From the NCBI GenBank assembly GCA_963809485.1, contig CAWEJX010000007.1:448001-512000 (forward strand): a stretch of DNA of 64,000 nucleotides. The letters are read 5' to 3'. The notes under the pieces were generated by a model that did no database searches, was not told the DNA's origin, and was given only the letters and a program-made list of their open reading frames with translations. This DNA comes from an uncultured Acidobacteriota bacterium (lineage in GTDB: Bacteria > Acidobacteriota > UBA6911). Positions 35,191-62,038 of this stretch are shown here, in pieces (positions within the stretch are counted from its first letter, which is position 1; each line of letters begins with the position of its first letter). Position numbers and translations under genes: made by a program.

Positions 35191-35357
35191 AAAAAAGCCT
35201 TTTTCCCGGGTACCCGGTGTTGCACAGCCGGGTTGTTTAATGAATAAATAGCACAAAATCAGCATTTGTGCCTGCACGGATTTTCCGGCCTGCCGGCAAA
35301 TTTTGCTCGCAGTGCATAAACAAGGCCGGAAGAGCTGGAAATCTGAATGCACATAAT

Positions 35358-35594
35358 TCTATTAGTAAATCCCCGGCTCTGCCGGGGGACTCAAAGCGTT
35401 TGACAGCTCCGTATTTTGAAACGCTGAGATACGCTGACCAAAGCGCTGACAAACGCCGATCTGGTCGGCGTGGATCGGAAGCACCTAATCGGCTTTTGCC
35501 CGCGTAAGTCAGCGTTCAAGACCAGCGTAACTCCTCCAACCGCTTTGAGAGGTTCCAATCCTTCAAGCCTCCGGCTTTGCCGGAGGTGCCTGAC
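35358..35594 (+). mobile_element. Non-autonomous IS200/IS605-type element, copy 1
   Basis: TAAT| ... TAAA-hairpin (tccccggc tct gccggggg) ... CAAG-hairpin (cctccggc ttt gccggagg) ... TGAC|. Confidence 0.85.
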
Positions 35595-35810
35595 TAATGA
35601 GCGACCGGCTCGGCAGACCTTCGAAGCTTGGTGAGTTGCGGATTCGGGCTCCCAGCCTCCGGCCGCTGCACCTTCCCGCTTTTCTTTATCCTTGACCTTT
35701 GAAACAATTTCCTATTAATTCTTCCAAGATCTTTGTATTCTTGAAGTTGTGCCGCAACAAGCGTGGAGCAAAATGAGCGGCTTCCAGACCTTCAATCCAG
35801 GGCCCGCACC

Positions 35811-36269
35811 ATGAAATGCCCTTTTTGCGGATTTTTAAAAGACCGGGTGGTGGATTCGCGCGAAAGCCGCGACGGAGATTCAATCCGGCGCAGGCGTCAG
35901 TGCCTGAACTGCGGGCGTCGCTTCACCAGCTATGAACGCAGTGATGAAATACCTTATATGGTGGTGAAAAAGGACGGCGGCAGGGAAAGGTTCGACCGCA
36001 ACAAGATCCTCAACGGACTTCTCAAAGCATGCGAAAAGAGGCCGGTCAGCCTCACCCAGCTTGAGAAGATCGTCGACAAGGTGGAACAAACCGTTCAGGA
36101 AAGCCCTGAGCGCGAGCTGGAATCGGTGAACATAGGGAAAATCCTTCTGTCTGAGCTCAGACGCATCGACAAGGTCGCTTACCTCCGTTTCGCTTCTGTT
36201 TATCTCGAATTTGAGGATGTGAGCGAATTCATGACCGAGATTAATGAGCTTTTCGAAAAAAAACAGTAA
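35811..36269 (+). CDS. nrdR: Transcriptional repressor NrdR
   Basis: MKCPFCG..VVDSR..IRRRRQC..C..RFTSYE; VAYLRFASVY. Confidence 0.98.
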   Translation: MKCPFCGFLKDRVVDSRESRDGDSIRRRRQCLNCGRRFTSYERSDEIPYMVVKKDGGRERFDRNKILNGLLKACEKRPVSLTQLEKIVDKVEQTVQESPERELESVNIGKILLSELRRIDKVAYLRFASVYLEFEDVSEFMTEINELFEKKQ

Positions 36270-36302
36270 CGGCGGGTGTGCCCCTGCGCGGAAGCCGGAT
36301 TT

Positions 36303-36369
36303 AAAAAGCAAACACGAAATGCACGAAATGCGCAGCAAATGATTTCGTCTATTTCGTGTCTGCTTTTTT
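36303..36369. repeat. 9-nt-periodic palindrome (CACGAAAT units), possible terminator
   Basis: aaaaagca aacacgaaat gcacgaaat ... atttcgtct atttcgtgtc tgcttttt. Confidence 0.6.
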
Positions 36370-36419
36370 GTCCCCCGGCATCGCGGCCCGCAAGCTGACT
36401 CTTTATTTATACTGTCCCA

Positions 36420-37448
36420 ATGTCAAAGAATCCGGTGCAATTCGACAGTGAAAACGAGCTCATCCGCCTCCTGCAGGATCGCTACCGGATTAAAAATCCT
36501 TTGGTAAAGAAAGGGATCGGAGACGATGCCGCCGTCCTATGCCCCAGGCATGCCGAGGAGTACTGGGTGATCACTACGGATATGCTGCTGGAAAACATCG
36601 ACTTCCGCCTTAGGTGGACGACTCCCGGCGACCTGGGCCGCAAATCGATCGCTGTGAACCTCAGCGATCTGGCCGCCATGGGCGCGCGGCCACGCTTCTA
36701 TACCGTTTCGCTTGCGCTTCCCAGGGAAATATCGCGGAAATGGATCCTGGATTTTTATGACGGGTTGACGGAACTGGGCAGTTCCATGGGGGCAATGCTG
36801 ATCGGGGGAGATTTTTCGCGCTCTGACAGCGGCATTACAATTTCTATTGCCGCCTTGGGGGAATCGCTGCGACGGAAGATTCTGTATCGTTCCGGAGGTC
36901 AGGCGGGGGATCTGCTGTATGTGACCGGGACCCTCGGCAAGTCGGCTGCGGGTTTTAGACTGCTGGAGCAAGGCTTCGGGCGGGCCCGCTCCGGGCCGCA
37001 AAAGGCAGCCGTTCAAGCGCATCAAAGGCCGGAGGCGCGCTGCGAGGCCGGGCTATGGCTGGCGCAGTCCGGCCTGGTCCATTGCATGATGGACCTGAGC
37101 GACGGTCTTTCCATGGATCTGCCGCGGATGTGCGCGGCCGGCAGCGTTGGAGCCGAAATTGATTCGGCGAATCTGCCCATATTCGGGGAATCCGCGCATT
37201 GGGGATTGGACCCATTAGAGCTTGCCCTGCACGGAGGAGAGGATTTCGAGCTGCTTTTTGCCGTTCCGGGCTCCAGGGCTGAACTGTTGAAGCGAACCTA
37301 TCCGGCGCATTTCCCCAAAATCACCTGCATAGGGAATCTGACCGGCAACGCCGGAGCGGTCTGGATCCGCGAACCGGGGAAGAAACGAAGACGCCTGAGG
37401 GAAGGCGGCTATGACCATTTTCGCCGGAGAAAGCCTGCCGATGGTTGA
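36420..37448 (+). CDS. thiL: Thiamine-monophosphate kinase
   Basis: GIGDDAA, VNLSDLAAMGA, MDLSDGL, GGEDFELLF. Confidence 0.96.
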   Translation: MSKNPVQFDSENELIRLLQDRYRIKNPLVKKGIGDDAAVLCPRHAEEYWVITTDMLLENIDFRLRWTTPGDLGRKSIAVNLSDLAAMGARPRFYTVSLALPREISRKWILDFYDGLTELGSSMGAMLIGGDFSRSDSGITISIAALGESLRRKILYRSGGQAGDLLYVTGTLGKSAAGFRLLEQGFGRARSGPQKAAVQAHQRPEARCEAGLWLAQSGLVHCMMDLSDGLSMDLPRMCAAGSVGAEIDSANLPIFGESAHWGLDPLELALHGGEDFELLFAVPGSRAELLKRTYPAHFPKITCIGNLTGNAGAVWIREPGKKRRRLREGGYDHFRRRKPADG

Positions 37449-37550
37449 ACTGGTGCGAGAGGTTGAGCCCGGTGCTGTCTCGTCGTACTCTTTATATAGG
37501 CGCGCAGGCACAAGCCCGATGCAATTGCCGTTACCTGGTGCGGGGTGCCT

Positions 37551-38339
37551 ATGAATGAAGAAGCGGGAGAAAGGATTCAGGAATTTTCCCTGTACGAGCT
37601 CGAGAAACTGCTGGGGTATAGCTTTGCCAACCCGGAGCTGCTCTATCAGGCCCTGACCCATCGATCCTTCGTCAATGAACATGAAGGGGAAAATCTCCGG
37701 AACAATGAATCCCTGGAATTTCTCGGGGATGCCGTCCTCGGTTTTCTGATCAGCTCCAGAATCTTCCGGCTCCATCCTGATCTTACGGAAGGGGGGCTCA
37801 GCAAAATCAAGGCATACCTGGTCAGCGCAGCCAATCTGGTTCGTCTGGCTGAGAAAATTCATCTGGGCGAATTTATTCGCCTGAGCAGAGGCGAAGAGAA
37901 GACGGGCGGCCGGACGAAACGCGCAATCATGGTGGATGCCTACGAAGCGATCATCGGGGCAATTTACCTGGATGGCGGAGTGGAAGCCGCATCGGATTTC
38001 GTATCGCGCCAGATGGATGAGTTTTTTGCAGGACTGGATCTCAAGCAGCTGACCTACGGGGATTTCAAGTCGGCGCTGCAGGAACAGCTGCACAATCTTG
38101 GCCGTCCTGAGCCCGTTTACCGTGTTGTGAACGAGATCGGGCCGGACCACAAAAAGACTTTTGTGGTTCAGGTCGTTATTCACGGGGAAGTGGTTGCCGA
38201 ATCATCAGGCACAACCAAAAAGGAAGCGCAGCAGTCCGCTGCCCGTCTTGCGCTTGAAAGCCTGGCCGCCACCCATTCCCCTTCGGACCCCGCACCGGGT
38301 TCCCCGCCCGACCCCCAATCCTCCACACCCAGCAGCTGA
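37551..38339 (+). CDS. rnc: Ribonuclease III
   Basis: ALTHRS, NESLEFLGDAVL, dsRBD KSALQE...KKEAQQ. Confidence 0.97.
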   Translation: MNEEAGERIQEFSLYELEKLLGYSFANPELLYQALTHRSFVNEHEGENLRNNESLEFLGDAVLGFLISSRIFRLHPDLTEGGLSKIKAYLVSAANLVRLAEKIHLGEFIRLSRGEEKTGGRTKRAIMVDAYEAIIGAIYLDGGVEAASDFVSRQMDEFFAGLDLKQLTYGDFKSALQEQLHNLGRPEPVYRVVNEIGPDHKKTFVVQVVIHGEVVAESSGTTKKEAQQSAARLALESLAATHSPSDPAPGSPPDPQSSTPSS

Positions 38340-38408
38340 CTTCAGGATCGGGGAACGCGGACCTGCGCTGACAAAAACGCCGACGGACGACGATTATCAA
38401 GAGGCGAG

Positions 38409-39878
38409 CTAGTGCGAGAAGAAATTGCCGATGCGCCGGGTCGAGGTTTTATCCGGTTTCTTGAGCTCTTCGGACAGCCTGCGCGCTTCCCTGTTTTCAG
38501 GATCCAGGCCAAGAACTTCGCGCAACTGCACTTCCGCTTTCCTGGGCAACGATACCTTTAAATAAAGCTTTGCCAGAGCCAGACGGCTTTCAATCGAAAA
38601 GGGCTCCAGCTCGCTGGACTTCAGTAGATGCTGTTCCGCGCTTTTTCTATGTTTCGGTGATTCCGACTGCGCAACTCCAAGATAGCGATGGTATCGGGCA
38701 TTCCCGGGACTGAGCCACACACAGTTTTTCAGATGCTCGATCGCCTTCTCAAAGTCGCCCCGAGCCAGGCAGGCGCGCCCTTCCCGGAAGATCACTTCAG
38801 CCTGGTCTCTGTCCGCCGGGCCGGCCGCAGTTCCGGAACTGCTGCGCTTTTCAATCGGGCTTTCATTTTTACGCCGGTTGTCATCGTAGAGTGCTCGAGA
38901 GGAGGGATTTCTGAGTGTTCCGTAGGATTCATTAATGTATGTGAATACCTGTTCGGCCTTGGCCCGCACTTCGGCTGAAAATTGCCTGGACTGATAACGA
39001 TCGGGATGATATTGCCGCGCTAGTTCGTGATACGCACCCTGTATCTCCTCGGCGCTTGCGTCCGTTGCGACACCCAGAATTTTGTAGGGATCGGCAGCTT
39101 CAAATTGCTGGAGCATTGCCTCGAGATTCTGAATTGCGGAATCGGTCTCATCGGCTGCAGCCGGCATATGGCCGGCCTTGACCTCCAGCGCCGCTTCCGG
39201 CTCTATCAGCCCAAGAAAGGCAAGACGCAGCAGGAGTTCTTCCGGCTTGACAGTGCCAGCAGGAAAAAGATTAAGCAGGTCCCCGATCTGCATTTTTTCG
39301 CCTGCCAGCGAAAAACAGTAATACTCGGCGTTATCCAGCGGCAAATTCGCCGCGTCGCGCGAGGCGTTCTGGGGGATGGAGAACGCCCGCTGATAGAAAT
39401 CAGGAGGTATCGCGGCCAGGGCATCGGAAGCTGCGCGCCGGGCAGAGAGGACGAGTATTTCCGGCAGTGCCAGATCGAGGCTCAACCGGTAACGGACAAG
39501 GTTCTCTCCGGGATAAAAGTGCATCTCACAATCAGCCCATTTCAACATTGAGGCCAGAATGGCAATCGCCTGCTCCCGCCTCGCCTGCTCGAGAATGCGT
39601 TCATCGCCATTGGAAATCTTCAGGATGGCCTCCTCGCTGGTTTTCCCGGTCTCCATCAGAGAGGCGACTTCAGGGACGGCGGCGCGCGGCAGGAGGTTCT
39701 TCAGGACTGCGATGCGCGCGAGGTGTTCCTCCGGCAGGCAGCTTTCGGCAAAGGCGAGAGTCCCCTGTTTCAGGACCAGCTGTTTTCTGGCCGATTCCTT
39801 CTGGATGCGAAAAAGGCCGCTTTTGGCGCTATCGTGCAATTCGAACAATTTATCGATCAACGGCCGGTTACATCGCAT
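38409..39878 (-). CDS. DUF4388-like + DnaJ (J) domain + TPR protein
   Basis: DPYKILGV...AYHELARQYHPD; C-terminal TPR helices. Confidence 0.8.
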   Translation of the reverse strand: MRCNRPLIDKLFELHDSAKSGLFRIQKESARKQLVLKQGTLAFAESCLPEEHLARIAVLKNLLPRAAVPEVASLMETGKTSEEAILKISNGDERILEQARREQAIAILASMLKWADCEMHFYPGENLVRYRLSLDLALPEILVLSARRAASDALAAIPPDFYQRAFSIPQNASRDAANLPLDNAEYYCFSLAGEKMQIGDLLNLFPAGTVKPEELLLRLAFLGLIEPEAALEVKAGHMPAAADETDSAIQNLEAMLQQFEAADPYKILGVATDASAEEIQGAYHELARQYHPDRYQSRQFSAEVRAKAEQVFTYINESYGTLRNPSSRALYDDNRRKNESPIEKRSSSGTAAGPADRDQAEVIFREGRACLARGDFEKAIEHLKNCVWLSPGNARYHRYLGVAQSESPKHRKSAEQHLLKSSELEPFSIESRLALAKLYLKVSLPRKAEVQLREVLGLDPENREARRLSEELKKPDKTSTRRIGNFFSH

Positions 39879-39981
39879 GGCAATCCAAAGGACATGGTAT
39901 TTATCGGCGCAGCAGGGGCGCGAATTATCACGATTTTATGGATGCCCGGGCAGATATTGGGGAAATTCGCGCGGTTTTTTT

Positions 39982-40722
39982 CTATTTGAAGCGGCCTGAA
40001 AACAGCCAGTAGCCGAGAAGCGCCAGGGTGTCGTATGCGCTGTGGGCCACGATGGGTGCAATCAGGTTCCCGCTCAACAGATATATAAGGCCGAATATCA
40101 GGCCGTAGACCGTGGCGATGAAAATGCCCTGAACCCCCTGAACGTAATGCCCCGCACCAAACGCAAGACTCCATAGGATCAGACCCACGCCCGCCCCTCC
40201 GAGATATCGGCGAAACTTGTTGAGAATGAAGGCGCGCTGTAATTCTTCCTTAATTCCACCGGCCACCAGCGCCGAAAAAATCAAAAGGGCCAGCTGCTGA
40301 GGCGTATGTATGATCTCAATGAGCGGATTGCGTTCCGTATAATACTCCGGCAGGTAGGTCCGAAGGGCAAAGGACACAAGCGCGTTGATCATGAAAAGGA
40401 CCGGGACCAGCGCAAGTCCCAGAAACAAATTGGATTTCCATCGGCTCCATTGCCATCCGATGCTGCGGATGGATTCCCTGTGAAGTTTCAGTATCAGGGC
40501 GAGAAGGAGAAAGGTGATACAGGATTCCAGCAGGAGGAAAACCGCCATAAACCGGACGTCGCTAATCAGCAGCTCGGACTTATTGCTGCCTATGGCTACA
40601 AAGGGCAGCGCTGCCAGAAAACTCGACATCAGGCCCGAGAGCAGGAAAACTTCAGCCAGGGCCTGGATGCGATCCATCCAGGACTTTCGGGGAGCGGAGG
40701 GCAGTATTGGCGCATAATCCAT
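39982..40722 (-). CDS. CPBP/CAAX intramembrane metalloprotease
   Basis: EELQRAF, FGAGH, PIVAHSAYD. Confidence 0.9.
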   Translation of the reverse strand: MDYAPILPSAPRKSWMDRIQALAEVFLLSGLMSSFLAALPFVAIGSNKSELLISDVRFMAVFLLLESCITFLLLALILKLHRESIRSIGWQWSRWKSNLFLGLALVPVLFMINALVSFALRTYLPEYYTERNPLIEIIHTPQQLALLIFSALVAGGIKEELQRAFILNKFRRYLGGAGVGLILWSLAFGAGHYVQGVQGIFIATVYGLIFGLIYLLSGNLIAPIVAHSAYDTLALLGYWLFSGRFK

Positions 40723-40944
40723 TTTTAGACCCTAACAGCATGCGGCGGCAGAGTCAAGCCAACCGGCATTGAGGTCATTTATTTTCAGTGGTTTGCCACC
40801 GAAATGGGGAGCGCAGGCGCACAAAATCGGGGCGACGGCTGCCGGCGCTGGGGGGATATTTTTAATGAGGTTGAACCCTTCGATCGGTTTCTTCATCAAT
40901 CTTAGTGATTGGAATCAAATATGTTGCCGTGCAAGAATGAAACA

Positions 40945-41601
40945 ATGAAGAGGATCTGCAGCATTCTAATCATTCTGGCCTTTGCGTTCCCTCCGCCTGC
41001 AGCCCAGGCTTCGGGCGATGGGACCCTCCCCGAAGGTACGCGGATCTCTTTGCAGCTGAATGATCACCTGAGCACAAAGGTGAACAACGAGGGCGATTCT
41101 TTCACTACGGTTGTCATTGCGCCCGTATATCTTGGGGACCGTATTGTGATTCCCAAGGGGAGCCTGGTGGCGGGCAGCATCTCGCGCATTATCCGCCCCG
41201 GCAGGTTCAGGGGTAAAGCGGTCATGAACCTTCTCTTTCAGTCCATAAACATCCCCGGGCGCGGTCAGTTACCGATTGCGGCGTCTCTTGTAAGCGTGGA
41301 TTCCGAAGGGAATTCAGGAGTTCGCACGGAAAATACGGTTGAAGGAGAAAGCTCCGGTCGAAGCGATGCCGGCAGGGTTGTGATTCCCGGGCTGGCCGGA
41401 GCCGGAATCGGGACTCTGGCCGGTGGAGGAAAAGGCGCTGCCATAGGCGCCGGAGTCGGAGCCGCCATCGGGCTGGCGACTGTGTTATCCACCCGCGGCA
41501 AGGATCTTCAGGTTCGCAGGGGAGCCACCATGGATATCGCGCTCGACAGGCCCCTGTCAGTTCCGCTCGAGGGAGAGGGCGCGACCGCCAAAAACCGATA
41601 G
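40945..41601 (+). CDS. Exported protein, TrbI/VirB10-like beta domain with glycine zipper
   Basis: Signal peptide; LPEGTRISLQL...IPKGS; GAGIGTLAGGGKGAAIGAGVG. Confidence 0.7.
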   Translation: MKRICSILIILAFAFPPPAAQASGDGTLPEGTRISLQLNDHLSTKVNNEGDSFTTVVIAPVYLGDRIVIPKGSLVAGSISRIIRPGRFRGKAVMNLLFQSINIPGRGQLPIAASLVSVDSEGNSGVRTENTVEGESSGRSDAGRVVIPGLAGAGIGTLAGGGKGAAIGAGVGAAIGLATVLSTRGKDLQVRRGATMDIALDRPLSVPLEGEGATAKNR

Positions 41602-41689
41602 TGCAGCTAAAAAGCCACCTTTCTTCTCTTCCCGGCGCAGCTAAATATCAAAATGTCGAACCGCAGAAGCTTGGGCCGAACTTCATAAT

Positions 41690-41916
41690 TAAATTGGTAA
41701 ATCCCCGGCTCTGCCGGTGGACTCAAAGAGTTTGACAGCTCCGTATTTTGAAACGCTGAGAAAAGCGCTGACAAACACCGATTTGTTCGGCGGGGATCGG
41801 AAGCGCCTCATCGGCTTTTGCCCGCGTAAGTCAGCGTTCAAGACCGGCGTAACTAGTCCAACCGCTTTGAGCGGTTCAAATCTTTCAAGCCTCCGGCTTT
41901 GCCGGAGGTACCTGAC
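41690..41916 (+). mobile_element. Non-autonomous IS200/IS605-type element, copy 2
   Basis: Same ends as copy 1; TAAT at 41686-41689, TGAC at 41913-41916. Confidence 0.85.
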
Positions 41917-41984
41917 TTCTCGTTCATCATCCGAGATTCTGCGGTTCCAAAATTGGCAGCAACTCTGAAGCCTCCGGAGGATGC

Positions 41985-43262
41985 CTATTCCCCCTTTTGA
42001 ATGACCTCCCTGCCCTCCATATACGGCCGTAAAGCTTCCGGAATAACCACCGACCCATCCGTCTGTTGATAGTTTTCCAATATGGCAAGCCAGGTCCTGC
42101 CGATTGCGAGGCCCGATCCATTGAGGGTGTGCAGGTACTGCCGCTTGCCGTCCTCATTTCTGAACCGTATATTGGCGCGCCTCGCCTGGAATGCCTCGAA
42201 GTTGCTGCAGGATGAAATTTCCCGGAAACGGTTCTGACTCGGCAGCCACACTTCCAGATCGTAGGTTTTGGCGCTCGAAAATCCCATGTCCCCCGTGCAG
42301 AGAACCACTACCCGGTAGTGGAGCCCGAGCCGCTGCAGGATGTCCTCGGCATCACGGGTCAGCGATTCCAGCTCCTCGTAGGAGCTCGCGGGATCGGCGA
42401 ATTTCACCAGCTCCACCTTGTTGAATTGATGCAGGCGGATCAGTCCCTTCACATCCTTTCCGTAAGAGCCGGCTTCGCTTCGGAAGCAGGGTGTGAACGC
42501 CACGAATTTCTTCGGCAGCTGGGCCTTTTCCAGAACCTCGTCCCGGTAAATGTTGGTGACCGGTACTTCCGCTGTGGGTATCAGATAGTAATCCGTTCCC
42601 TCGACCCGGAACAGATCCTGGGCAAACTTGGGCAGGTTGCCGGTTCCGAAGAGGCTTTGGAAATTTGCCATAAAGGGAGGCAGGACTTCCCGATAGCCGT
42701 GATGTTTCGTGTGGACATCCAGCATAAAATTGATCAGGGCTCTTTCCATAAGAGCTCCCGTTCCGCTAAGAAGCGAAAAACGCGAGCCGGTAATTTTGAC
42801 GGCTCGATCCATGTCCAGGATTCCCAGGGAGGTTCCCAGATCCACGTGGTCGAGAGGAGCAAAATCGAATTTCGGGGCGCTTCCCCATCGGCGGACCTCC
42901 CGACTCGTCGTTTCGTCGCAACCGGTCGGGACCGAAGGGTCAGGCAGATTGGGAATGCTGTGCAGGAATGAATTCAACCTCGCTTCCGCCTGGCTTGCCG
43001 TTTCATCAAGCGACTTGATTTCGCTCGAAATCTCCTTCACTTTCGCCTGCTGCGCCGCGGTGTCGCTTCCTGATCTCTTCAGCTTTCCGATAGCTTCGGA
43101 AGCCTCGTTGCGCTGCCGCCGGAGCTCCTCGCAGCGCAGGATGATGCTCTTCCATTCCGCGTCCGCGGCGATCAGCTCATCGAGGGGGTATTGCCCTCCG
43201 CGGGCGGCCAGCCTTTCCCGAACGCTGTCTATGTTCTCCCGGATAAAGTTTTTATCCAGCAT
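41985..43262 (-). CDS. serS: Serine--tRNA ligase
   Basis: [41 protein letters not shown]. Confidence 0.98.
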
Positions 43263-43324
43263 ATGGGATCCTCCCTACCACGCATTCTACCATTGAAGCG
43301 AGGCTATCCACGGGATTTCGAGAT

Positions 43325-43523: not shown

Positions 43524-43671
43524 CGGATGTTTTCTCCTCCAACAGGTTTTCACTCCCTGCGCATTCTATCATTGACATTGTCAGATGCCGTTGTTTCAAT
43601 CATTTTTGGCTTCAGGGGGCGGTTACCGGATACAATGAGGTTCCAGCACACTTTTGAGAAAGAAGAACAAA

Positions 43672-53080: not shown

Positions 53081-54421
53081 CTACACCTCCATACTCAGCT
53101 TTGAATCCGCCATGCTTTCCACCCGGGCGGGTCGGTATGAAACGGATTCCGTTTCGTTTCGCCAGCGCTTTATCAGCTCGGGCTTTTTCTCTTCGAAGGT
53201 CAGGCACAGGCGCTCGATCCTGTCATCCACTTCGTTGGAGCCCAGCATCCGGGTCTCGCTGACAAAGGATGCGATGCGCGCCAGATAGAGGGGCGTCAGA
53301 GACCGGAGCAGGTGTCCGCGTTCCACAGGCTGTTTCTTATAGGCCACGGCGAAGTCGAGAACGACCTGGGACCAGAGATCGTCGTCCAGGCTGAAATCCT
53401 TCGCGCCGGGATTCCGGGCCCCGATTCTGCGAATGGCTGCAAATGCCTCCGGGGAAAGCGCCGCAGACCAGATCTCGCCCAGCTCCTCGCACCCCCGCTT
53501 GAAGGCTGCGATCATCCGTTCGGTATTGACCTCGATCGGATCCAGGCCGACGCCGTAGCGGAATCCGAACAGGTCCACTTCCTGGCTGCCCGTGCTCGAC
53601 GTCCACACCGGTTCATATTCCTGCATCAGCCGGAATACGCTGCCGACAACCTGGTGCAGCATGTCGCTCAGATGGAGGCCGGGGTCCTTGGCATCGTGCA
53701 GCTTTGCGCCAAGAAAGCTTTGGCACACGCGGTAACCCTCTGCCATCGCAATTGTGGACATCCATATGTCGATGCCGAAGCGGGCGGTATCGGTTTCCCA
53801 GTCGCTCCGGGTCAGATACCGCCCGATCAGCCGCCGGGAGATTCCAAAATCGCCGCCGATCGGTTGGCGCAACCGCAGGCCATAAAGCGCCCGGGTCAAG
53901 GGGTAAACGATGCTGTTGGTGATTGTGCCGTCATACTTGTGACGGTGATAGTACGGCCCGACAAAATCAAACCCCGTGTGCAGTATGGGCCGCAGGAGCA
54001 AGTCGATCCACTCGGGTGTTATCGAGCGCAGATCCGAATCCACGACCACGCAGGCCCGGGCGTCGAGATGTTGGGCAATCTGAAAGATCAGGTGGAACGC
54101 GCTGCCCTTGCCCGGAATTCCGTGATACGGGAAGGACAGCCGGTGCACTGGGAACAGCGGTGTCGTCATCAGCAGAAGCCGTTCCTTGTCAAGGCCCGTT
54201 CCCAGCACCGCATCGCGCGTGCCGTCGGTTGAGCCGCCGTCGGAGTTGACGATCACTGCCCGGAACTGCGGAAAGTATTTCTCCAATCCGGCCTGCGCCG
54301 CCGCGATCACGTGGCCGATCGTTCGGCCGTTGTTGTAGCTGGGCACACCGATCACGATGTCCGCTCTGTCGATTCCCTCCAATGCTTTATGAGCCTCCTC
54401 GGAAAATAGCCTTTCGATCAT
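53081..54421 (-). CDS. GT2-fold glucosylglycerate/mannosylglycerate synthase-like (single-step Ggs/Mgs)
   Basis: GVPSYNN, SDGGSTDGT, PGKGSA, DSDLRSI, RHKYDGTITN, RQPIGGDFG, FGIDIW, KLHDAKDP. Confidence 0.75.
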   Translation of the reverse strand: MIERLFSEEAHKALEGIDRADIVIGVPSYNNGRTIGHVIAAAQAGLEKYFPQFRAVIVNSDGGSTDGTRDAVLGTGLDKERLLLMTTPLFPVHRLSFPYHGIPGKGSAFHLIFQIAQHLDARACVVVDSDLRSITPEWIDLLLRPILHTGFDFVGPYYHRHKYDGTITNSIVYPLTRALYGLRLRQPIGGDFGISRRLIGRYLTRSDWETDTARFGIDIWMSTIAMAEGYRVCQSFLGAKLHDAKDPGLHLSDMLHQVVGSVFRLMQEYEPVWTSSTGSQEVDLFGFRYGVGLDPIEVNTERMIAAFKRGCEELGEIWSAALSPEAFAAIRRIGARNPGAKDFSLDDDLWSQVVLDFAVAYKKQPVERGHLLRSLTPLYLARIASFVSETRMLGSNEVDDRIERLCLTFEEKKPELIKRWRNETESVSYRPARVESMADSKLSMEV

Positions 54422-54431
54422 GACCGACCCA

Positions 54432-55661
54432 TCACGATGCACGTCCTTGAATGGATTCAACGCCCGGTTCCACAGCATTCAGCAAGAGGTCGAAGAAGTC
54501 GGGAATAGCCGCCTGCACGCGGTTCCAGCTGGGCATGAGGGGCAGGCCCAGCGGACTCTCGATGAATTCCTGCGCAGCCTGATGAAGGCTCTGGGCAAAG
54601 GTGGCAACGGCGAGCTCCTCCGCGTGCCGGTCGAATTCCAGGCCGTTGATCATGGCGTCCGCGCAATATCGGTCGATCGTGTCCTCCGCCATGCGAACGT
54701 AGCGCACTTCGAGGCTCCGGAAGTGGTCCTTGGTGAAGATGACTCCTTCGGCCGCAAGCGTGCGCATCAGCGACTTTGCAACTTCGCAGGACATCCTTCT
54801 CAGCCCTTTCGTGGGGTCCTCTTCGGACAGTTCCTGGTGCTTGTGTTCATAATTGTCCGCCAGATCCACCTGGCAGATGCGCGCCAGCGAGCAGTTTCGA
54901 TATACCTCGGCAAGCACGCCGACTTCCAGCCCCCAATCCCACGGGATGCGGTTTATCCGGGCCAGGTTGATCTGCATGGCGAATTCGCCCGCAAGGGGAT
55001 ATCGAAAACTGTCCACAAACCGGAGAAAAGGCGTGCTGGGCGCCATGTTTTCCATGGCGCGGATCACGGGAGTCATAAAAAGGCGCGTGACCCGGCCGTG
55101 CATACGGTCCGTGACGCGTGCGTAGTAGCCCTTGCAGAATTCGAAGCCGAGGTTCGGATGCGCGACCGGGTAGACGAGCCGGGCCAGGAGCCTTCGGTCG
55201 TAGTTCACGATATCGCAGTCGTGCAGGGCGATAACGCTGCAGTCGGCCTTCGCCAGGATGTAGCCGTAGGCGATCCAGCAGCTGCGCCCCTTTCCGTCGG
55301 CGCCTGCCGAGAGGCCCTTGTCTTCCAGCATCCGCAGCAGCGCCTGCACCGGTTCGCTGTTTATCCACAAGATGCTGACGGGGCAACGGAAATTTGTGAA
55401 AAATGCCTGTGCCTTTTCATATTCCGATGGGCCCGCCCCGCCCAGCGCGACCACGATACGGCGGAGGTAGTTCACCTGCACCAGTTCTTCAGTGATGCGC
55501 TTCATGGCAGGCGATTCAAACTCGCGGTACAGAGCGGGCAAAACCAGCGCAATGCCCCTGCGCCTGGATATTTCGTTCAGGCCCTTTTCCAGCCGGGCTG
55601 TGCCGTTTTGCTTCAAGCGATGCAGCGTCGCAACCATTCCCGTCTGATAAAAGTCGGCCAT
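54432..55661 (-). CDS. Glucosyl-3-phosphoglycerate synthase-like glycosyltransferase (GpgS)
   Basis: MADFYQ.G..TLH, GKGR, LHDCDI, KGYYAR, GRVTRL, FRYPLAGEF, WGLEVG, YEHKHQ. Confidence 0.8.
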   Translation of the reverse strand: MADFYQTGMVATLHRLKQNGTARLEKGLNEISRRRGIALVLPALYREFESPAMKRITEELVQVNYLRRIVVALGGAGPSEYEKAQAFFTNFRCPVSILWINSEPVQALLRMLEDKGLSAGADGKGRSCWIAYGYILAKADCSVIALHDCDIVNYDRRLLARLVYPVAHPNLGFEFCKGYYARVTDRMHGRVTRLFMTPVIRAMENMAPSTPFLRFVDSFRYPLAGEFAMQINLARINRIPWDWGLEVGVLAEVYRNCSLARICQVDLADNYEHKHQELSEEDPTKGLRRMSCEVAKSLMRTLAAEGVIFTKDHFRSLEVRYVRMAEDTIDRYCADAMINGLEFDRHAEELAVATFAQSLHQAAQEFIESPLGLPLMPSWNRVQAAIPDFFDLLLNAVEPGVESIQGRAS

Positions 55662-56153
55662 GGCGCACCTCCATAACGCTTGTATCAGGAAAACCTGCCG
55701 CGCGGCATCCCCGGAGAAGGGGATTATGTGGAGAAAAAGACAGTAGCTGTGGTTGGTGCTGGATTCCGGGGAAAGCGATCCTTCCTGTTTTCGGAATCCC
55801 CTGCCGACAGGGTTTATTCCGCGCGCTTTTCGCCGTAACGGATATGGCTATGGTGAAACGCCTCTCTGCGGTCGACCTGGCGATCGCGCAAAAAAACAAT
55901 CACTTCCATAGAGGACAAGAAAACATAATTCGCCCTTGGTCCGAAGCAGGCTGCCAGTTCACTTCGAAAAAAACCCTGACCAGGGACAGCCGCTCCGGAT
56001 TTTTCGACCCTATACCGGTTTGATAGGATGGATATAGTTTACCGCACTGCCCGAGCGGTCTGCATTCCTTGGAAAGGGAATCCCGCGCCCAATCGCGGAT
56101 TGCTGCCAGCTTGCGGCGGGCAGGCCGGAAATCCCCCCGAGGCTTTCCAGCTT

Positions 56154-56972
56154 TTACTCTTTCACTCCGCCTGCTGTCAGGCCGGCAACGATTCGTCTTT
56201 GAAAGACGGCTACCGCAGCAATCAGCGGCGCTGTGCTTACGACTATGCCTGCTGCCAGCAATCCCCAGGGAATCTCATAGGCGAACGCGCCGCTCAGCGT
56301 TGCAACTCCCACTGTCACCGTGCGCGAAGATTCCAGGTTCATGAAAGTCATGGCGAACATGAACTCATTCCATGAAAAAATGAATACCAGAAGAAAAGCG
56401 GTCGTTAACGCGGGAATGGCCAGAGGCATGATGATTTTGCGATACGTGTCGAAGGCCGTCAGGCCGTCGATTGCCGCCGCTTCCTCCAGTTCATACGGAA
56501 TCTGTTCCATATATCCTGTAAGCAGCCATACTGCGAAGGGGAGGTTCAATGCGGCGTAGGGAATGATGAGGCCCCAGGGCTGGTTGACCAGGCCCGCGAA
56601 GCGGACAAGTTCATATACCGGGAATACGAGCACAATAGGAGGGAAAAAGGCCAGGATCAGCAGCAAAGAGGCTATCGTGGAGCGGAAACGTCTCGGAGCT
56701 CTTGCGAGCCTGTATGCGGCAAGGGAGGCGCAGGAAGTACAAAGCAACGCCGCAAGCGCCGCGATCACAATGCTGTTGAGATAATAGGCGGCGAACGGCC
56801 GGCGCAGGAAAAGCCCGGCATAATTATCCAGCGTGAAGCTCGAAGGCAACAAGGAGGGCGGTACCTGTGCAAGCTCCAGGGAGTCTTTGACGGAGGATAT
56901 GCCGTACCACGCCAGCGGAGCTGCCGCGACTGCGCACCAGATCAAAATGAAAAGCCTAGCGACCCATTTCAT
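56154..56972 (-). CDS. Carbohydrate ABC transporter permease (MalG-like)
   Basis: ELEEAAAIDG EAA loop; FSWNEF; GLTAGGVK. Confidence 0.95.
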   Translation of the reverse strand: MKWVARLFILIWCAVAAAPLAWYGISSVKDSLELAQVPPSLLPSSFTLDNYAGLFLRRPFAAYYLNSIVIAALAALLCTSCASLAAYRLARAPRRFRSTIASLLLILAFFPPIVLVFPVYELVRFAGLVNQPWGLIIPYAALNLPFAVWLLTGYMEQIPYELEEAAAIDGLTAFDTYRKIIMPLAIPALTTAFLLVFIFSWNEFMFAMTFMNLESSRTVTVGVATLSGAFAYEIPWGLLAAGIVVSTAPLIAAVAVFQRRIVAGLTAGGVKE

Positions 56973-57846
56973 ATTTCCTTGGCAGCAGGGAATAAAGCGC
57001 CCAGGCAGTCAGGGCCAGTACAAGCACGATGGCCACCACAAGCGCGCCGCCGTAACCGAAATCAAGATATCGCATATAGGTATAATAGCCGTATACCGAA
57101 ACCGTCTCTGTCGCGCCGCCCGGTCCCCCCCCGGTCAGCACATAAACCAGATCAAAAACCGCAAAAGCCTGGACGATTCTGAATATCAGCGCCAGGAAAA
57201 TGAACGGCAACAGATAGGGCAGGGTAACATACCTGAATTTATGCCATGCCGTCCCTCCGTCGATCTCGATGGCCTCATACATTTCCTTTGGAATGCACTG
57301 TAGCCCGGCGAGCAGCACGATAAAGACAAAAGGGAAAGCCTTCCAGACGTCGGCCATGATTATGGTGCTCAACGCCGTCTGCGGCCTTCCCAGCCAGGCC
57401 AGCGGCGAGTCCACGATCCCGATTTTCAGGAGCACGGCATTAATAACGCCGTACTGGTCGTTGAAGATCCACATCCAGAGCACCGCTATGATTGCCGTTG
57501 GAAGAGTCCAGGGGATCAGCAGGAAAGTCCGCGCAGTCCGGCGCCCCTTTTTTATTTTTTCTACGGCCAGGGCCAGCAGCAAGCCAAGCAGGAATTCCAG
57601 AGCAACCGAAACGATCGTAAACAAAGCCGTAGTTTTGAGCGAGCTGTGAAAGCGCGAATCTGCGAGGAGCCGGGCGAAATTTCCCAGTCCGGCGAAATGC
57701 GCCTGGAATCCGGTCTCCAGATTGAGATTCAGAAAACTGAGAATCAACGTCCGGAGGATCGGATAAACAAAGATAAGCAGCACCAGTGCGGCTGCAGGTG
57801 TGAACCAGAGGATTTCACGCATTCTTTTGGATACGAGGATGCTCAT
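56956..57846 (-). CDS. Carbohydrate ABC transporter permease (MalF-like)
   Basis: GLGNF, ADVWK, YEAIEIDG, LTGGGPG. Confidence 0.95.
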   Translation of the reverse strand: MSILVSKRMREILWFTPAAALVLLIFVYPILRTLILSFLNLNLETGFQAHFAGLGNFARLLADSRFHSSLKTTALFTIVSVALEFLLGLLLALAVEKIKKGRRTARTFLLIPWTLPTAIIAVLWMWIFNDQYGVINAVLLKIGIVDSPLAWLGRPQTALSTIIMADVWKAFPFVFIVLLAGLQCIPKEMYEAIEIDGGTAWHKFRYVTLPYLLPFIFLALIFRIVQAFAVFDLVYVLTGGGPGGATETVSVYGYYTYMRYLDFGYGGALVVAIVLVLALTAWALYSLLPRKYEMGR

Positions 57847-57861
57847 GGTGGTTCCCGTACA

Positions 57862-59076
57862 TCACCCTTTCAGAAGAGCGCGAGTCTCCCGCGCCGCTTC
57901 CCTCAGCGCGTCCTCACACGGGATGCGTCCGGTCAGTGCGGCGCTTAACCATCGCTGGAGTATATCCGAAGCCTGCGCGTATTCCGGAATAGAAGGCCGG
58001 GAACGCGCCTTTTCGAAAACAGGCAATAGCTCCGCGGGCACCAGGCTTCTCCGCGAAGGGATTCGGCCCACTTTCTGCTGCACGCGTGTCAACTGCCCGG
58101 AACGAGTCATGTATATCAGGAATTCCCATGCCTTTGCCGGATCCGGGCAAAATCCGGAGATGGCAAATCCCCATCCCCCGAGTGTCGCAGCGCCCGAGTG
58201 TCCCGGCTGATGCACCATGGACGTGAATGCGGTTTTGTCCTTCACCGGCGCGTTACTGCGCTGCATCAGGGACCATACATAAGGCCAGTTGCGAAGAAAC
58301 ACCGCGCGCCCGCTCTGGAACAAAATCCGCGTATCTTCTTCGATATAGCTCGTCACGGCCGGTGGAGATATGGTGCCGATGGTATCCTTTAAAAAATTCA
58401 ATGCCTGGAGCGCCTCCCGCCCGTCTACATAAACCTGCCTTGTCTCCGGATCAATCCAGTCTCCGCCGAACCCCCAGAGAACCTCGAGAAACACGGTGAC
58501 CAGGCCCTCATATTGCTTCCCCTGCCAGAGAAAACCCCAGCGCTCCCTGGTCTGGAGTTCGCGCGACCGCTGAACCAGCTCATCGAAAGTCTGCGGCGGC
58601 TCGGGCAGCAGATCCTTCCGATAGTAAAGCAGGCCTGCATCGGTGAACGCCGGGATGCGGTAAAGACTCCCTTTATAGGACCCCGCTTCGAGTTCCGCGG
58701 GGAGAAAATCCTTGAGGTCTTCCGCTGAGAGACAGCCGGTTAAATCACGGAGCCATCCCGCTGCCGCGAACTTCGCGATCCAGATTGCGTCGCAATAGAC
58801 GATGTCAAAGGCAGATTTCCCGGACAGAAAAGAGGTCGAATAGAGATCTTCCCGCGCATTGGTTGCGGGAGGACCTTCTACCAGGCGCACGCGGGTTCCC
58901 GGATTCAGGCTGTTGAATTCCGTGACAAGCTCGCGCCAGATGCCTGTCCCGTCGGGTTCCATCAAAATCGAAAGCTCCCCGCTAAGGCGTGACGGAGCCA
59001 TCCTCAGGCTGAGGATGATCAATATCGCTATTGCAAGCGCGGCGAAGGCTTTCGCCAGTATCTTTGTCAAAGACAT
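57862..59076 (-). CDS. Sugar ABC transporter substrate-binding protein (trehalose/maltose-like family)
   Basis: DAGLLYYRKDLL, QGKQYEGL, FLRNWPY, ATLGGWG; exact start uncertain. Confidence 0.9.
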   Translation of the reverse strand: MSLTKILAKAFAALAIAILIILSLRMAPSRLSGELSILMEPDGTGIWRELVTEFNSLNPGTRVRLVEGPPATNAREDLYSTSFLSGKSAFDIVYCDAIWIAKFAAAGWLRDLTGCLSAEDLKDFLPAELEAGSYKGSLYRIPAFTDAGLLYYRKDLLPEPPQTFDELVQRSRELQTRERWGFLWQGKQYEGLVTVFLEVLWGFGGDWIDPETRQVYVDGREALQALNFLKDTIGTISPPAVTSYIEEDTRILFQSGRAVFLRNWPYVWSLMQRSNAPVKDKTAFTSMVHQPGHSGAATLGGWGFAISGFCPDPAKAWEFLIYMTRSGQLTRVQQKVGRIPSRRSLVPAELLPVFEKARSRPSIPEYAQASDILQRWLSAALTGRIPCEDALREAARETRALLKG

Positions 59077-60070
59077 GGATGTCCTTAGGTTCGATGTGCA
59101 GCGGTATCGAGTCTGAGGGCGGCCGCTCATCCGAGAGAACCATCAGGGAGACTTCCCCAATTCTTGTATGCACCAGGAATCGAGCGCCGAGGTTTTCGGC
59201 CCAGACGACTTTCGCCGGAATTCCTGTACCTGTTTTGATCGCTTCCGGACGAATACCGATCTTCACGGGTCCGGAGAAATCGAGCCCTGTTTGAATTTCA
59301 TCAGACCCGACGCGAAAAGTGCCCGCTTTTAAAATGACGTCCAGCAGGTTCATTGCCGGCGACCCGATGAATGAGGCTACGAAGAGGTTTTTCGGCATCC
59401 GGTACAGAGCTTCGGGGCTGCTGATCTGCTGGACTTGCCCCCGATCCAAAACGACGGTCCGGTCCGCCAGAGTGGTGGCTTCCACCTGATCGTGTGTGAC
59501 GTAGATTACCGTGGCCTTGAGACGCGAAAAAAGCTCCTTGAGCTCATGACGGACCTTTTCGCGCAAAATCGCGTCGAGGTTGCTAAGCGGTTCATCGAAA
59601 AGAAAAACCTTTGGTTTGCGGATCAATGCCCTTCCCAGGGCGACGCGCTGCCTCTGACCGCCGCTCAACTCGCGCGGTCTCTTCTCGAGCAGGTCTTCGA
59701 TCTCCAGCATCCGGGCGGTCTCGTGTATGCGACGATCGATTTCGGCGCGGGGAGCCTTTTTGAGGACCAGGTTGAGCGCAAGGTTTTCATAGCAGCTCAT
59801 GTGCGGATAAAGAGCATAGGACTGAAAAACCATCGCCACATCGCGCGAACGGGCAGGGATTTCGTTGACCCGCCTGTTTCCTATCCAGATCTCCCCTTCG
59901 GACGGCTGATCGAGACCCGCAATGATGCGGAGAAGTGTCGATTTGCCGCATCCCGAAGGCCCGAGCACCGTCAGTACCTCCTGGTCCCGGATTTCGAAGG
60001 AGACCTCTCTCAGAGCATAAATGCTTCCGGAGAAACGCTTTGAAACGCTCATGCAACGCACAGAAGCCAT
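58982..60070 (-). CDS. Sugar ABC transporter ATPase (MalK-like)
   Basis: GPSGCGKST, VFQSYALYPH, LSGGQRQR, DEPLSNLD, YVTHDQ. Confidence 0.96.
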   Translation of the reverse strand: MASVRCMSVSKRFSGSIYALREVSFEIRDQEVLTVLGPSGCGKSTLLRIIAGLDQPSEGEIWIGNRRVNEIPARSRDVAMVFQSYALYPHMSCYENLALNLVLKKAPRAEIDRRIHETARMLEIEDLLEKRPRELSGGQRQRVALGRALIRKPKVFLFDEPLSNLDAILREKVRHELKELFSRLKATVIYVTHDQVEATTLADRTVVLDRGQVQQISSPEALYRMPKNLFVASFIGSPAMNLLDVILKAGTFRVGSDEIQTGLDFSGPVKIGIRPEAIKTGTGIPAKVVWAENLGARFLVHTRIGEVSLMVLSDERPPSDSIPLHIEPKDIHVFDKDTGESLRRACNSDIDHPQPEDGSVTP

Positions 60071-60243
60071 AGTGCCCCTATTGGAACCGCCGCACGCCGC
60101 CGGCTGCTTTGCTCATTGGGCGGGCGGATGGATGCAATGCGCGGGCAACGTGAACCTCCCGGATCCGCCCCAATGGAAGTCGCCGGGATAAAGCGCGCTA
60201 ACGATGCGGTATATTCTGTCCCTTTGCATCGTTTTCGAATAAT

Positions 60244-60496
60244 TACATTGGTAAACCCCCGGCTCTGCCGAGGGACTCAAAGAGTTTGACCGCTCCGTAT
60301 TTTGAAACGCTGAGAAACGCTGATAAAAGGGCTGACAAACGCCGATTTATTCGGCGAGGGTCGGCGAGCAAAAGCCGATGAGGCGCTTCATCGGCTTTTG
60401 CCCGTATAAGTCAGCGTTCAAGACCGGCGTAACTAGTCCAACCGCTTTGAGCGGTTCCAATCTTTCAAGCCTCCGGCTTTGCCGGAGGTACCTGAC
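60244..60496 (+). mobile_element. Non-autonomous IS200/IS605-type element, copy 3
   Basis: TAAT 60240-60243, TGAC 60493-60496; has an extra internal 14-bp perfect inverted repeat. Confidence 0.85.
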
Positions 60497-60497
60497 T

Positions 60498-60875
60498 TCA
60501 CGACTCCAGGATGACCGTGGCTACTGCCCACTGCTCCGTGTGCGAAAGGCTGAGGTGCACTTTGCCGGCTCCCTTGCTCAGGCTGAGCCTTTCGGCTTCA
60601 CCGTGAAGCAGCATGGTAGGGGCGCCCTGCCTTTCCCTGTGAACCTCCACATCCAGCCAGGTCACTCCCTGGGCCCAGCCCGTCCCCAGCGCTTTGAAAA
60701 GCGCTTCTTTTGCGGCGAAACGCGCAGCAAAGTGAGGCACCGGGTCGCGGTGGCCCGAGCAGAACTGCTGTTCCCCGGGCGTGAAGACCCTTCCGATGAA
60801 ACGGTCCTTCAGCCGGTCCATGACTTTTCGAAGACGGGCAATTTCGACGATATCCACACCGGTGCCGATGATCAT
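60498..60875 (-). CDS. acpS: Holo-ACP synthase
   Basis: GTGVDIVE, FAAKEA, SLSH. Confidence 0.97.
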   Translation of the reverse strand: MIIGTGVDIVEIARLRKVMDRLKDRFIGRVFTPGEQQFCSGHRDPVPHFAARFAAKEALFKALGTGWAQGVTWLDVEVHRERQGAPTMLLHGEAERLSLSKGAGKVHLSLSHTEQWAVATVILES

Positions 60876-60931
60876 CAATAACTCCGATAGCGGGTTGACA
60901 GAGTGCGACAAAACGACTCAATATTCCGGAT

Positions 60932-61747
60932 ATGCGAAGGGATGGATTTGTCCTCCGGCAGGCCCGGGGAATACCTGTATACAGCTGCTGTGCCTTTGAA
61001 AAGCTGGGAGGCCTTTGTCATGGCTTCTCCACGCGCAGGGACGGCGCACCCGCGCTTTCCGAATGCTCCCTGAACCTCGGCTATACTGCCTGGGACACGC
61101 CTGAGCGTGTGGATCAAAACCGTCGGCGGTTCCTGGATGCAATCCGTCTCGACGAAGCGCGCCTGGTTACCCTGCACCAGGTTCATTCCAATCGTGTGTA
61201 TATCATAAGGGATAATTCCGGCCAATGGAACCAGCCAGAAGCGGATGCGCTCATCACCGGCATGGAAGGCGTTGCCCTGGCGGTTCAAACCGCCGATTGC
61301 CTGCCGGTGCTGATCGCGGATCCTGTGACGGGGACCCTGGCGGCAGTCCATGCGGGCTGGAGAGGAACGCTGGCACACATTTTGCCGGGCACGGTCCATC
61401 AGATGAAGACAAGCTTCGGCGTCGATCCTGCCAATCTCCGGGTTGCTGTCGGACCCGGAATCCGAAGCTGCTGCTATGAAGTGGGACCGGAAGTGGCGGA
61501 GTTTTTCGACGAGGAATTCCCGGGAGCGAACCTAGTTGCGCCAGCACAGGCGCCGGGGAAATATCTACTGGATCTGTGCCGCGCCCTGGAAGTCGACGCG
61601 CACAGGGCGGGAATACGGCCGGAAAATTTTAATGATTCCTGCCTCTGCACCCGGTGCCGCAGCGACGAATTCTTCTCCTATCGCGCCGAGGGAGCCCGCG
61701 CCGGCCGGATGATGGCCGTCATCGGTCGAATTCCGCTCACACGGTGA
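60932..61747 (+). CDS. pgeF: YfiH/PgeF-family protein
   Basis: HGFSTR, QVHS, TADCLPVL, HAGWRG, CCYEVG, FFSYR. Confidence 0.93.
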   Translation: MRRDGFVLRQARGIPVYSCCAFEKLGGLCHGFSTRRDGAPALSECSLNLGYTAWDTPERVDQNRRRFLDAIRLDEARLVTLHQVHSNRVYIIRDNSGQWNQPEADALITGMEGVALAVQTADCLPVLIADPVTGTLAAVHAGWRGTLAHILPGTVHQMKTSFGVDPANLRVAVGPGIRSCCYEVGPEVAEFFDEEFPGANLVAPAQAPGKYLLDLCRALEVDAHRAGIRPENFNDSCLCTRCRSDEFFSYRAEGARAGRMMAVIGRIPLTR

Positions 61748-61792
61748 CGCGGAGCTCACGGAGGACCTGCTCTGCCTCCGTGAACTCCGCGT
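61747..61792. repeat. Periodic palindrome (CRCGGAG units) next to element copy 4
   Basis: acgcggagctcacggagg ... cctccgtgaactccgcgt. Confidence 0.65.
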
Positions 61793-61804
61793 TTCCCCAT
61801 TAAT

Positions 61805-62038
61805 TACATTGGTAAACCTCCGGCTCTGCCGGGGGACTCAAAGAGTTTGACAGCTCCGTATTTTTAAACGCTGAGAAACGCTGATAAAAGCGCTGACAAA
61901 CGCCGATTTGTTCGGGGATCGGAAGCGCCTCATCGGCTTTTGCCCGCGTAAGTCAGCGTTCAAGACCGGCGTAACTCCTCGAACCGCTTTGAGCGGTTCA
62001 AATCTTTCAAGCCTCCGGCAAAGCCGGAGGTATCTGAC
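61805..62038 (+). mobile_element. Non-autonomous IS200/IS605-type element, copy 4
   Basis: TAAT 61801-61804, TGAC 62035-62038; right hairpin loop is AAA instead of TTT. Confidence 0.85.

Follow-up and report, generated by a model that had tools for sequence, protein, structure and literature searches.

Intergenic TAAT-flanked repeats of an uncultured Acidobacteriota bacterium as probable gene-less derivatives of an IS200-group element

The 64-kb window analyzed here (G000:C7:448001-512000) belongs to the genome of an uncultured Acidobacteriota bacterium, designated G000, a 6.04-Mb assembly of 21 contigs with 95.7% completeness and 7.3% contamination. It contains four copies of a short repeat, each located between genes as judged from Pfam assignments of the neighbors. 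The initial annotation had described these repeats as diverged, non-coding copies of an insertion sequence (IS) of the IS200/IS605 type. All four were recovered at the same positions and align end to end, and none of the open reading frames of at least 80 aa that overlap them is a complete independent gene, in agreement with a non-coding, intergenic nature. The copies, their parts and the tetranucleotide that precedes each of them are listed below, where G006 denotes a sister species and genus-mate of G000.

35354..35357, + strand: target TAAT 5' of copy 1, outside the element; kept once in the G006 empty site
35358..35594, + strand: copy 1, 237 bp, between an ECF sigma factor gene and nrdR
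Parts of copy 1: TAAA 35366-35369, left hairpin 35370-35388, CAAG 35564-35567, right hairpin 35568-35586, TGAC 35591-35594
41686..41689, + strand: target TAAT 5' of copy 2
41690..41916, + strand: copy 2, 227 bp, lacking one 10-nt ACGCTGA-type repeat, between a TrbI-like gene and serS
Parts of copy 2: TAAA 41698-41701, left hairpin 41702-41720, CAAG 41886-41889, right hairpin 41890-41908, TGAC 41913-41916
60240..60243, + strand: target TAAT 5' of copy 3
60244..60496, + strand: copy 3, 253 bp, with the outer arms of the long-form central hairpin kept, between an ABC ATPase gene and acpS
Parts of copy 3: TAAA 60252-60255, left hairpin 60256-60274, CAAG 60466-60469, right hairpin 60470-60488, TGAC 60493-60496
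61801..61804, + strand: target TAAT 5' of copy 4; exact empty site in G006 and in metagenome contigs
61805..62038, + strand: copy 4, 234 bp, between a Cu-oxidase_4 family gene and rlmN
Parts of copy 4: TAAA 61813-61816, left hairpin 61817-61835, CAAG 62008-62011, right hairpin 62012-62030, TGAC 62035-62038

The layout is the same in all four copies and is that of the initial annotation. On the 5' side, TAAT is followed by 8 nt (the first being T), TAAA and a 19-nt hairpin module; on the 3' side, CAAG, a hairpin, 4 nt and TGAC are followed by T. The left hairpin is CCCCCGGC-TCT-GCCGGGGG or a close variant, and the right hairpin is CCTCCGGC-TTT-GCCGGAGG. Both are stable when folded as single-stranded DNA and compared with 200 shuffles (z -3.0 to -4.2; 0-2 of the 200 shuffles fold equally well). 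The hairpin loops, CTCTG and CTTTG, are in direct orientation on the same strand at both ends, without terminal inverted repeats. The acpS stop codon is 1 nt away from the end of copy 3. Copy 4 has an inverted loop in its right hairpin (62012-62030), which reads CAAAG instead of CTTTG; the left and right hairpins of this copy are therefore able to pair together.

The element ends were located by BLAST of both ends against G000, and left and right matches were then paired. The 278 left and 282 right matches yielded 246 paired elements, with 32 left and 36 right orphans, so that the large genome-wide family predicted from the four copies amounts to 246 complete and ~68 partial copies. The paired elements total 73.6 kb, or 1.2% of G000, and fall into two size classes: 143 elements of 160-300 bp (mode 220-240 bp) and 103 elements of 360-400 bp (mode ~395 bp). 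None of the end matches in G000 forms a left/right pair spaced 600-1500 bp and, therefore, no copy carries a gene; the filler between the ends measures 120-280 bp. The long form equals the short form plus ~160 bp, and this insert folds together with its flanking arms as a single long hairpin (~190 nt). Copy 3, which retains the outer arms of this hairpin, therefore derives from the long form by deletion.

The 43-nt loop of the long hairpin is found in both orientations (55 and 25 copies among the 80 of 103 that could be parsed). A flip-flop switch was considered and rejected, because loop orientation and diagnostic bases in other parts of the element are closely associated (e.g. 48/3 versus 2/20); the two orientations therefore represent two sub-lineages, with TACATT-type and TCTATT-type starts (for example, the long-form copies L053-L057), rather than recurrent inversion. 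One of the loop orientations places AAGGAG, a spacer and ATG before a candidate frame of 42 codons.

Position counts over the 246 copies delimit the element sharply. Information is ~0 upstream of TAAT and is high from TAAT onwards and through TGAC; the base after TGAC still carries 0.94 bit (T in 191 of 246), with no information further out. The boundaries proposed for the window copies thus hold across the genome. The 5' flanking tetranucleotide is TAAT in 149 of the 246 copies, TGAT in 38 and CAAT in 13. TAAA is the left guide of 188 copies, CAAG the right guide of 201 and TGAC the end of 203, some of the non-consensus rows in this tally being alignment-register errors. Because TAAT occurs at a frequency of only 0.0017 per genomic position, its presence at 149 flanks is far beyond chance. 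Per available genomic site, TAAT is used ~10 times as often as TGAT and 26 times as often as CAAT, the rarer classes being inflated relative to TAAT by mutation of the flank after insertion. A following T is found at 25% of all genomic TAAT sequences, the background against which the 191 of 246 is to be read.

Comparison with G006, in which the flanking DNA is 76-98% identical, covered 767 kb of the 5.3 Mb of G006; its elements were found by BLAST of whole loci, most of them having been missed by a strict regular expression. Copies 1, 3 and 4 are missing from G006. Copy 2 is common to both species at the orthologous site and is therefore a shared, older insertion. The empty site of copy 4 in G006 reads ...CCATTAAT|TTGTGAAAT..., that is, both window flanks joined with a single TAAT. 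Both flanks are collinear for 28 G000 elements, of which 8 sites are filled in G006 and 20 are not. The junction length is exact at 8 of these 20, and likewise, on inspection, at a ninth (C8:46097). Conversely, two G006-specific insertions have exact empty sites in G000 that retain TGAT, which identifies TGAT as a genuine target. Intragenomic paralogous sites resembling empty ones gave only 5 matches in G000, at 74-85% identity. In these exact G006 and G000 junctions TAAT or TGAT is kept once, and the lack of a target duplication, already claimed from the window copies, is borne out.

Two of the empty sites also settle the exact position of the cuts. At TAAT|AGCC (C21:178586) and TAAT|ACTC (C8:46097) the base after TGAC is A; the cuts therefore fall exactly after TAAT and after TGAC, and the 1-nt shift of the boundary that the initial annotation had allowed for is excluded. 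The T that usually follows TGAC is a target preference, a property of the target and not of the element end.

Soil and wetland metagenome contigs of a close relative (~94% identical) skip copies 3 and 4 as well. Since these contigs may derive from the G006 species, they are not independent evidence. Their depth on the element exceeds that on its flanks 100- to 400-fold. All the sequencing-run matches were assembled contigs, each with a share of at most 0.21. Metagenome joints that appeared to go back from copy 4 to copy 3 were discarded as repeat-collapse artefacts.

The junctions bear on an explanation of a different kind, in which the repeats are miniature inverted-repeat transposable elements (MITEs) with terminal inverted repeats (TIRs), moved by a DDE cut-and-paste transposase, or else immobile structured-RNA or regulatory repeats. 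The small size, non-coding nature, intergenic location and abundance of hairpins would suit both versions, and a few short metatranscriptome contigs, which do not count as evidence of transcription, overlap elements. However, the junctions are exact and without target duplication, and the hairpin loops match in direct rather than inverted orientation. Because presence differs between the sister species, the elements have moved. A known RNA family was also considered and dropped: Rfam at gathering thresholds gave nothing on the window, so that no family reaches threshold, and with E values up to 1 three long copies produced only sub-threshold look-alikes (microRNA precursors, isrG) and copies 3 and 4 nothing. 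We consider this explanation very improbable; the data leave room for a secondary host function of the elements.

The sequence of the ends can be read by the cleavage code of IS608 (ISHp608), taking the 4 nt that directly precede the hairpin foot on its 5' side as the guide. The initial annotation had applied this code with guide position 1 pairing with site position 2, guide position 2 with site position 1 and guide position 4 with site position 4. Under it, T-A-x-T is expected from TAAA and T-G-x-C from CAAG; the actual sites, TAAT and TGAC, both have A at position 3. Excerpts of PMC3201880 and PMC3597680 describe recognition of the IS608 cleavage sites by the tetranucleotide located 5' of the respective hairpin foot, and those of PMC3201880 give the pairs C-3 with G-35 and T-4 with A-34, which match the first two of these pairings; in the same excerpts, A-2 is bonded to T-4 and is not paired to the guide.

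Transposase-bearing relatives were grouped into lineages labeled IS-A, IS-B, IS-C and IS-D, names coined in this analysis. IS-B comprises tnpA-bearing elements with the family's own end sequences. It is degenerate in the genus-mates G002 (N-terminally deleted, the contig stopping inside the right hairpin) and G007 (a TGA stop, right end truncated). In G133, from another genus of the same taxonomic family, three identical intact copies are present, with flanks TAAT, TAAT and TGAT. Their guides, TAAA and CAAG, and both hairpins are identical to those of the G000 family and the linkers differ; the right hairpin is followed by TCAC, TGAC and T. The encoded protein of 143 aa matches Y1_Tnp with an E value of 1.7e-37, as well as the solved IS200, ISHp608 and ISDra2 transposases. 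A tnpA-bearing parent with the same guides, hairpins, TAAT or TGAT flank and TGAC end therefore exists, and the predictions of TAAT from TAAA and of TGAC from CAAG fit both the family and this element. The other lineages use different guides and sites, as follows.

IS-C (G004, G041, G015): left guide AGGT with site CTAA, right guide AAAG with site TTAC; 3 of 3 copies
IS-D (G046, G047, G049, G050): left guide AGTC with site CTAG, right guide AAAG with site TTAC; 4 of 4 copies
G035 copy of IS-A: right guide CATA with site TGAT; 1 copy

The right site of IS-C had provisionally been read as TAAT/TATT and was replaced by TTAC once IS-D fixed the guide register. Altogether, eight guide/site pairs obey the IS608 register, six of them in the related tnpA-bearing elements, which provides comparative support.

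The right-end module is not confined to this phylum. An exact 31-nt match lies beside IS-B-like tnpA genes in metagenome-assembled genomes (MAGs) labeled Terrimicrobiaceae, Desulfobacter and Desulfobacteraceae, and T follows TGAC in 14 of 15 loci from other phyla. T is also found 3' of the cut at the left end, after the right end and at the target; a T in this position appears to be needed, or at least favored, at all cuts. A G·T wobble between guide position 1 and site position 2 seems to be tolerated. In a Deltaproteobacteria MAG, three copies (L120, L129, L130) represent another gene-poor derivative, of independent origin and ~420 bp long; its guides and hairpins are the same, and of tnpA only the last ~38 codons remain. 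Gene-poor derivatives of this type of IS have emerged repeatedly in different phyla.

We conclude, with a probability of roughly 0.9, that the repeats are non-autonomous derivatives of an IS200-group element of the IS200/IS605 family, of the kind known as palindrome-associated transposable elements (PATEs) or MITEs, which were inserted after TAAT by peel-and-paste transposition. Each copy retains nothing of the parent but its two ends, located on one strand, with unrelated filler between them. A Y1 (HUH) transposase supplied in trans would bind both hairpins on the single-stranded top strand, where the TAAA guide would pair with the TAAT site and the CAAG guide with the TGAC site. Cleavage would then take place after TAAT and TGAC, and the element would be excised, presumably as a single-strand circle, to be pasted 3' of another TAAT in a lagging-strand template, or less often of TGAT, with a following T preferred. 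A candidate for the type of transposase involved is the Y1 protein encoded between the same guides and hairpins in G133.

Several observations weigh against this conclusion. The left linker, from the cut to the hairpin foot, is 12 nt compared with 19 nt in IS608, and a shortened left linker impaired strand transfer of IS608 in vitro. Guide and flank do not covary significantly within the family, the TGAT flank being present in 4 of 15 copies with a CAAA guide versus 32 of 188 with TAAA. An intact cognate tnpA was not found in the G000 assembly (95.7% complete), and the IS-A copy of G006, located at a different site from that of G000, has the Tyr codon but also a 2-nt frameshift. An insertion in G000 is indistinguishable from a precise excision in G006; either event requires the transposase. 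Finally, one metagenome contig skips 254 nt, not 253 nt, at copy 3; we read this as an indel in a T-run of that strain, because the length of the G006 site fits a 253-nt insertion.

Four matches to Y1_Tnp were identified in G000. The first is the IS-A copy (L001/L041, G000:C6:297047-300445), an IS200-type gene in whose left end TAAT and TAAA are separated by an 11-nt linker and followed by a hairpin that shares the TCT loop; the Tyr codon of its PKYR motif is TAG, a nonsense codon, and its right end is missing. A candidate right end of the form CAAG-hairpin-TGAC (in L001) was rejected, as that stretch appears to belong to an integrase fragment. Immediately next to this copy is a tyrosine-integrase fragment with a frameshift, and a tail-fibre-like gene lies ~320 bp away; the region is probably a decayed prophage or island. 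The second match is an intact 150-aa protein of the type of the REP-associated tyrosine transposases (RAYTs), REP standing for repetitive extragenic palindrome (L002, G000:C15:224127-227471; gene at 1405-1857 of the locus, - strand). The third (L003, G000:C20:490861-494142) is an unrelated tnpA of the IS200/IS605 type, interrupted by an insert of ~400 bp; ~70 nt of its coding region are present twice. The fourth is a Y1-like protein of 279 aa.

The intact RAYT raises the possibility that the high-copy, intergenic elements are repeats of the REP/REPIN type spread by this single-copy protein, rather than IS200 derivatives. However, on either side of the RAYT gene lies a different repeat with three hairpins, arranged upstream of the gene in tandem units with a spacing of 143 bp, which looks like a classic REP/RAYT arrangement separate from the element family, and there is no left- or right-end match of the family within 6 kb of it. 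The elements themselves measure 230-395 bp and have two distinct ends in direct orientation, homologous to those of tnpA-bearing IS200 elements. We therefore give hardly any credence to a RAYT origin.

Whether the IS200-derived family is still mobile is a separate matter. Among 51 genomes of the taxonomic family, it is amplified only in G000 (469 candidates at first look) and G006 (188). Long-form copies have a median identity of 96.5% to their consensus, compared with 89% for short-form copies, and there are no pairs of copies with at least 99% identity in either size class; the family is therefore probably no longer moving in G000. A tblastn search of G000 with the IS-B protein found only the IS-A gene (52% identity) and a 27-aa remnant beside one element. 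This remnant (G000:C20:806287-806367, - strand; E 0.57) lies ~70 nt downstream of the element and resembles the N-terminus of the IS-B and IS-C transposases (...SLEHTQ*ECKHHI...). The family was amplified in the lineage of G000 and G006 and has probably been stranded by loss of its cognate transposase; in G000 it is now probably immobile, with the cognate tnpA lost or broken.

The same elements could instead be mobile still, through a transposase missed by the assembly or a non-cognate Y1 protein, such as the RAYT, the 279-aa protein or IS-A by read-through. The 20 of 28 comparable sites that are not filled in G006 and the young long form are in line with such activity; moreover, the assembly is incomplete, repeats often remain unassembled, and the nonsense-mutated IS-A has the same TAAT/TAAA logic at its left end. 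Against this stand the lack of near-identical pairs in both size classes, the broken gene and short remnant as sole tblastn hits of a parent-type TnpA, and the different hairpin family around the RAYT, and we regard continued mobility as unlikely. Of the initial proposal, a PATE-like element mobilized in trans by a Y1 transposase, the IS200 derivation and the TAAT targeting have thus stood, and mobilization is best read as past, with no intact cognate tnpA and no pairs at that level of identity. A joint statement, in which the family is a natural record of ~250 events of the IS200 guide code in the cell, including the G·T wobble and the 3' T rules, spread by a transposase since lost or by cross-mobilization from a diverged, now nonsense-mutated IS200 copy, is possible but rather doubtful.

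The orientation of the elements was scored by contig-level GC skew together with dnaA, because local 100-kb GC skew was too noisy (236 of 314 loci agree). The top strand is the G-rich strand in 214 of 246 copies (binomial p 3e-34), comprising 124 of 143 short and 90 of 103 long elements, and the majority strand coincides with the G-rich strand in every contig with non-zero skew (e.g. C20 with 3+/58-, C6 with 15+/0- and C1 with 1+/19-). The C7 elements switch from - to + somewhere between 441 kb and 483 kb, an interval that contains the following gene.

6563..7504 of the window (G000:C7:454563-455504), + strand: dnaA

Given the flip across dnaA, the replication origin is probably located in the first 10 kb of the window or close by. 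Crude gene calls are divided ~50:50 between the strands, and elements are not co-oriented with neighboring genes (upstream, 115 same and 131 opposite; downstream, 100 same and 146 opposite). The strand bias follows replication, not transcription, which also argues against RNA or regulatory repeats. According to excerpts of PMC5371812 and PMC3597680, insertion of the IS608/ISDra2 type into the lagging-strand template gives a replication-linked orientation, and the orientation of the family is as expected for such insertion. Contig C8 is mixed (12+/20-), with + prevailing in the first 200 kb and - afterwards; the replication terminus, an inversion or a misassembly might be the cause.

The family resembles IS608 and the IS200 group in its subterminal hairpins on one strand, its 4-nt guides 5' of the hairpin foot in the same register with A at site position 3 (as far as the IS608 excerpts describe these), its insertion 3' of a tetranucleotide without duplication, its lagging-strand-template orientation and a parent transposase homologous to the solved ISHp608 and ISDra2 proteins. 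Unlike IS608, the elements are gene-less, their sites are TAAT and TGAC instead of TTAC and TCAA, the right linker as well as the left one is shorter (8 nt versus 10 nt), the hairpins are perfect 8-bp stems and T is preferred after the cut.

PATEs, as excerpts of PMC7290912 and PMC10055086 present them, are ends-only IS200/IS605 derivatives in Haloquadratum, Halanaerobium hydrogeniformans and Geobacillus stearothermophilus; they are, like the elements here, short and gene-less and retain the ends of the IS, and their movement is presumed to take place in trans. Absence of coding capacity, ends in common with an autonomous IS and many dispersed copies, by which PATEs and MITEs are recognized, are all found in this family. 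The copy number is different, with 246 complete copies compared with one in H. hydrogeniformans and 'several' among 47 elements in G. stearothermophilus in those excerpts. PATEs often carry a TnpB guide RNA, according to the same excerpts; here, in contrast, tnpB (PF07282) has 0 matches in G000, where IscB was not searched for, there is no Rfam match, and the filler, including the ~190-nt hairpin, is unrelated to the parent.

The elements share with REP/REPIN-RAYT systems a high copy number of intergenic hairpin repeats tied to a Y1 HUH protein, and G000 has such a system elsewhere. REPs, as described in abstracts, are palindromes of 20-40 nt, often in inverted pairs, that flank a single-copy RAYT (TnpA-REP); the elements differ in that their left and right ends are distinct and carry guides, their target is fixed and a parent IS exists. 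They differ from TIR-MITEs in having neither terminal inverted repeats nor a target-site duplication.

A description of the family was not found in the open-access literature, searched outside ISfinder. The kind of element is already known (PMC7290912 and PMC10055086, in the excerpts cited above) and no new mechanism is involved; what is unusual is the copy number and the clarity of the mechanism. The family provides a large, clean natural data set for single-strand peel-and-paste transposition, with exact junctions and a target spectrum of TAAT > TGAT > CAAT. Four related tnpA-bearing lineages of the same class obey the IS608 code with different guide/site pairs, and this fit across lineages supports predicting the targets of uncharacterized IS200 elements. 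The orientation of the elements maps the replichores and origin of a draft Acidobacteriota genome and can be used to orient contigs relative to the origin. For annotation, the family accounts for ~74 kb of 'intergenic repeats'.

Two minor structures accompany the elements. A 39-nt mini-element (G000:C20:734866-734904, - strand) consists of the start of a left end fused to a right hairpin and TGAC; it is the sole example by a strict pattern, and G006 has a full copy at that site. A short dispersed repeat (...CATCAT...ATTCTGCGGTTC-AAAA...) adjoins the right flank of copy 2 at 41917-41960 of the window. The same repeat is found beside elements at C20:916 kb, C8:143.9 kb, C8:475.5 kb and C20:1215.5 kb of G000, and one element is inserted within a member of it.

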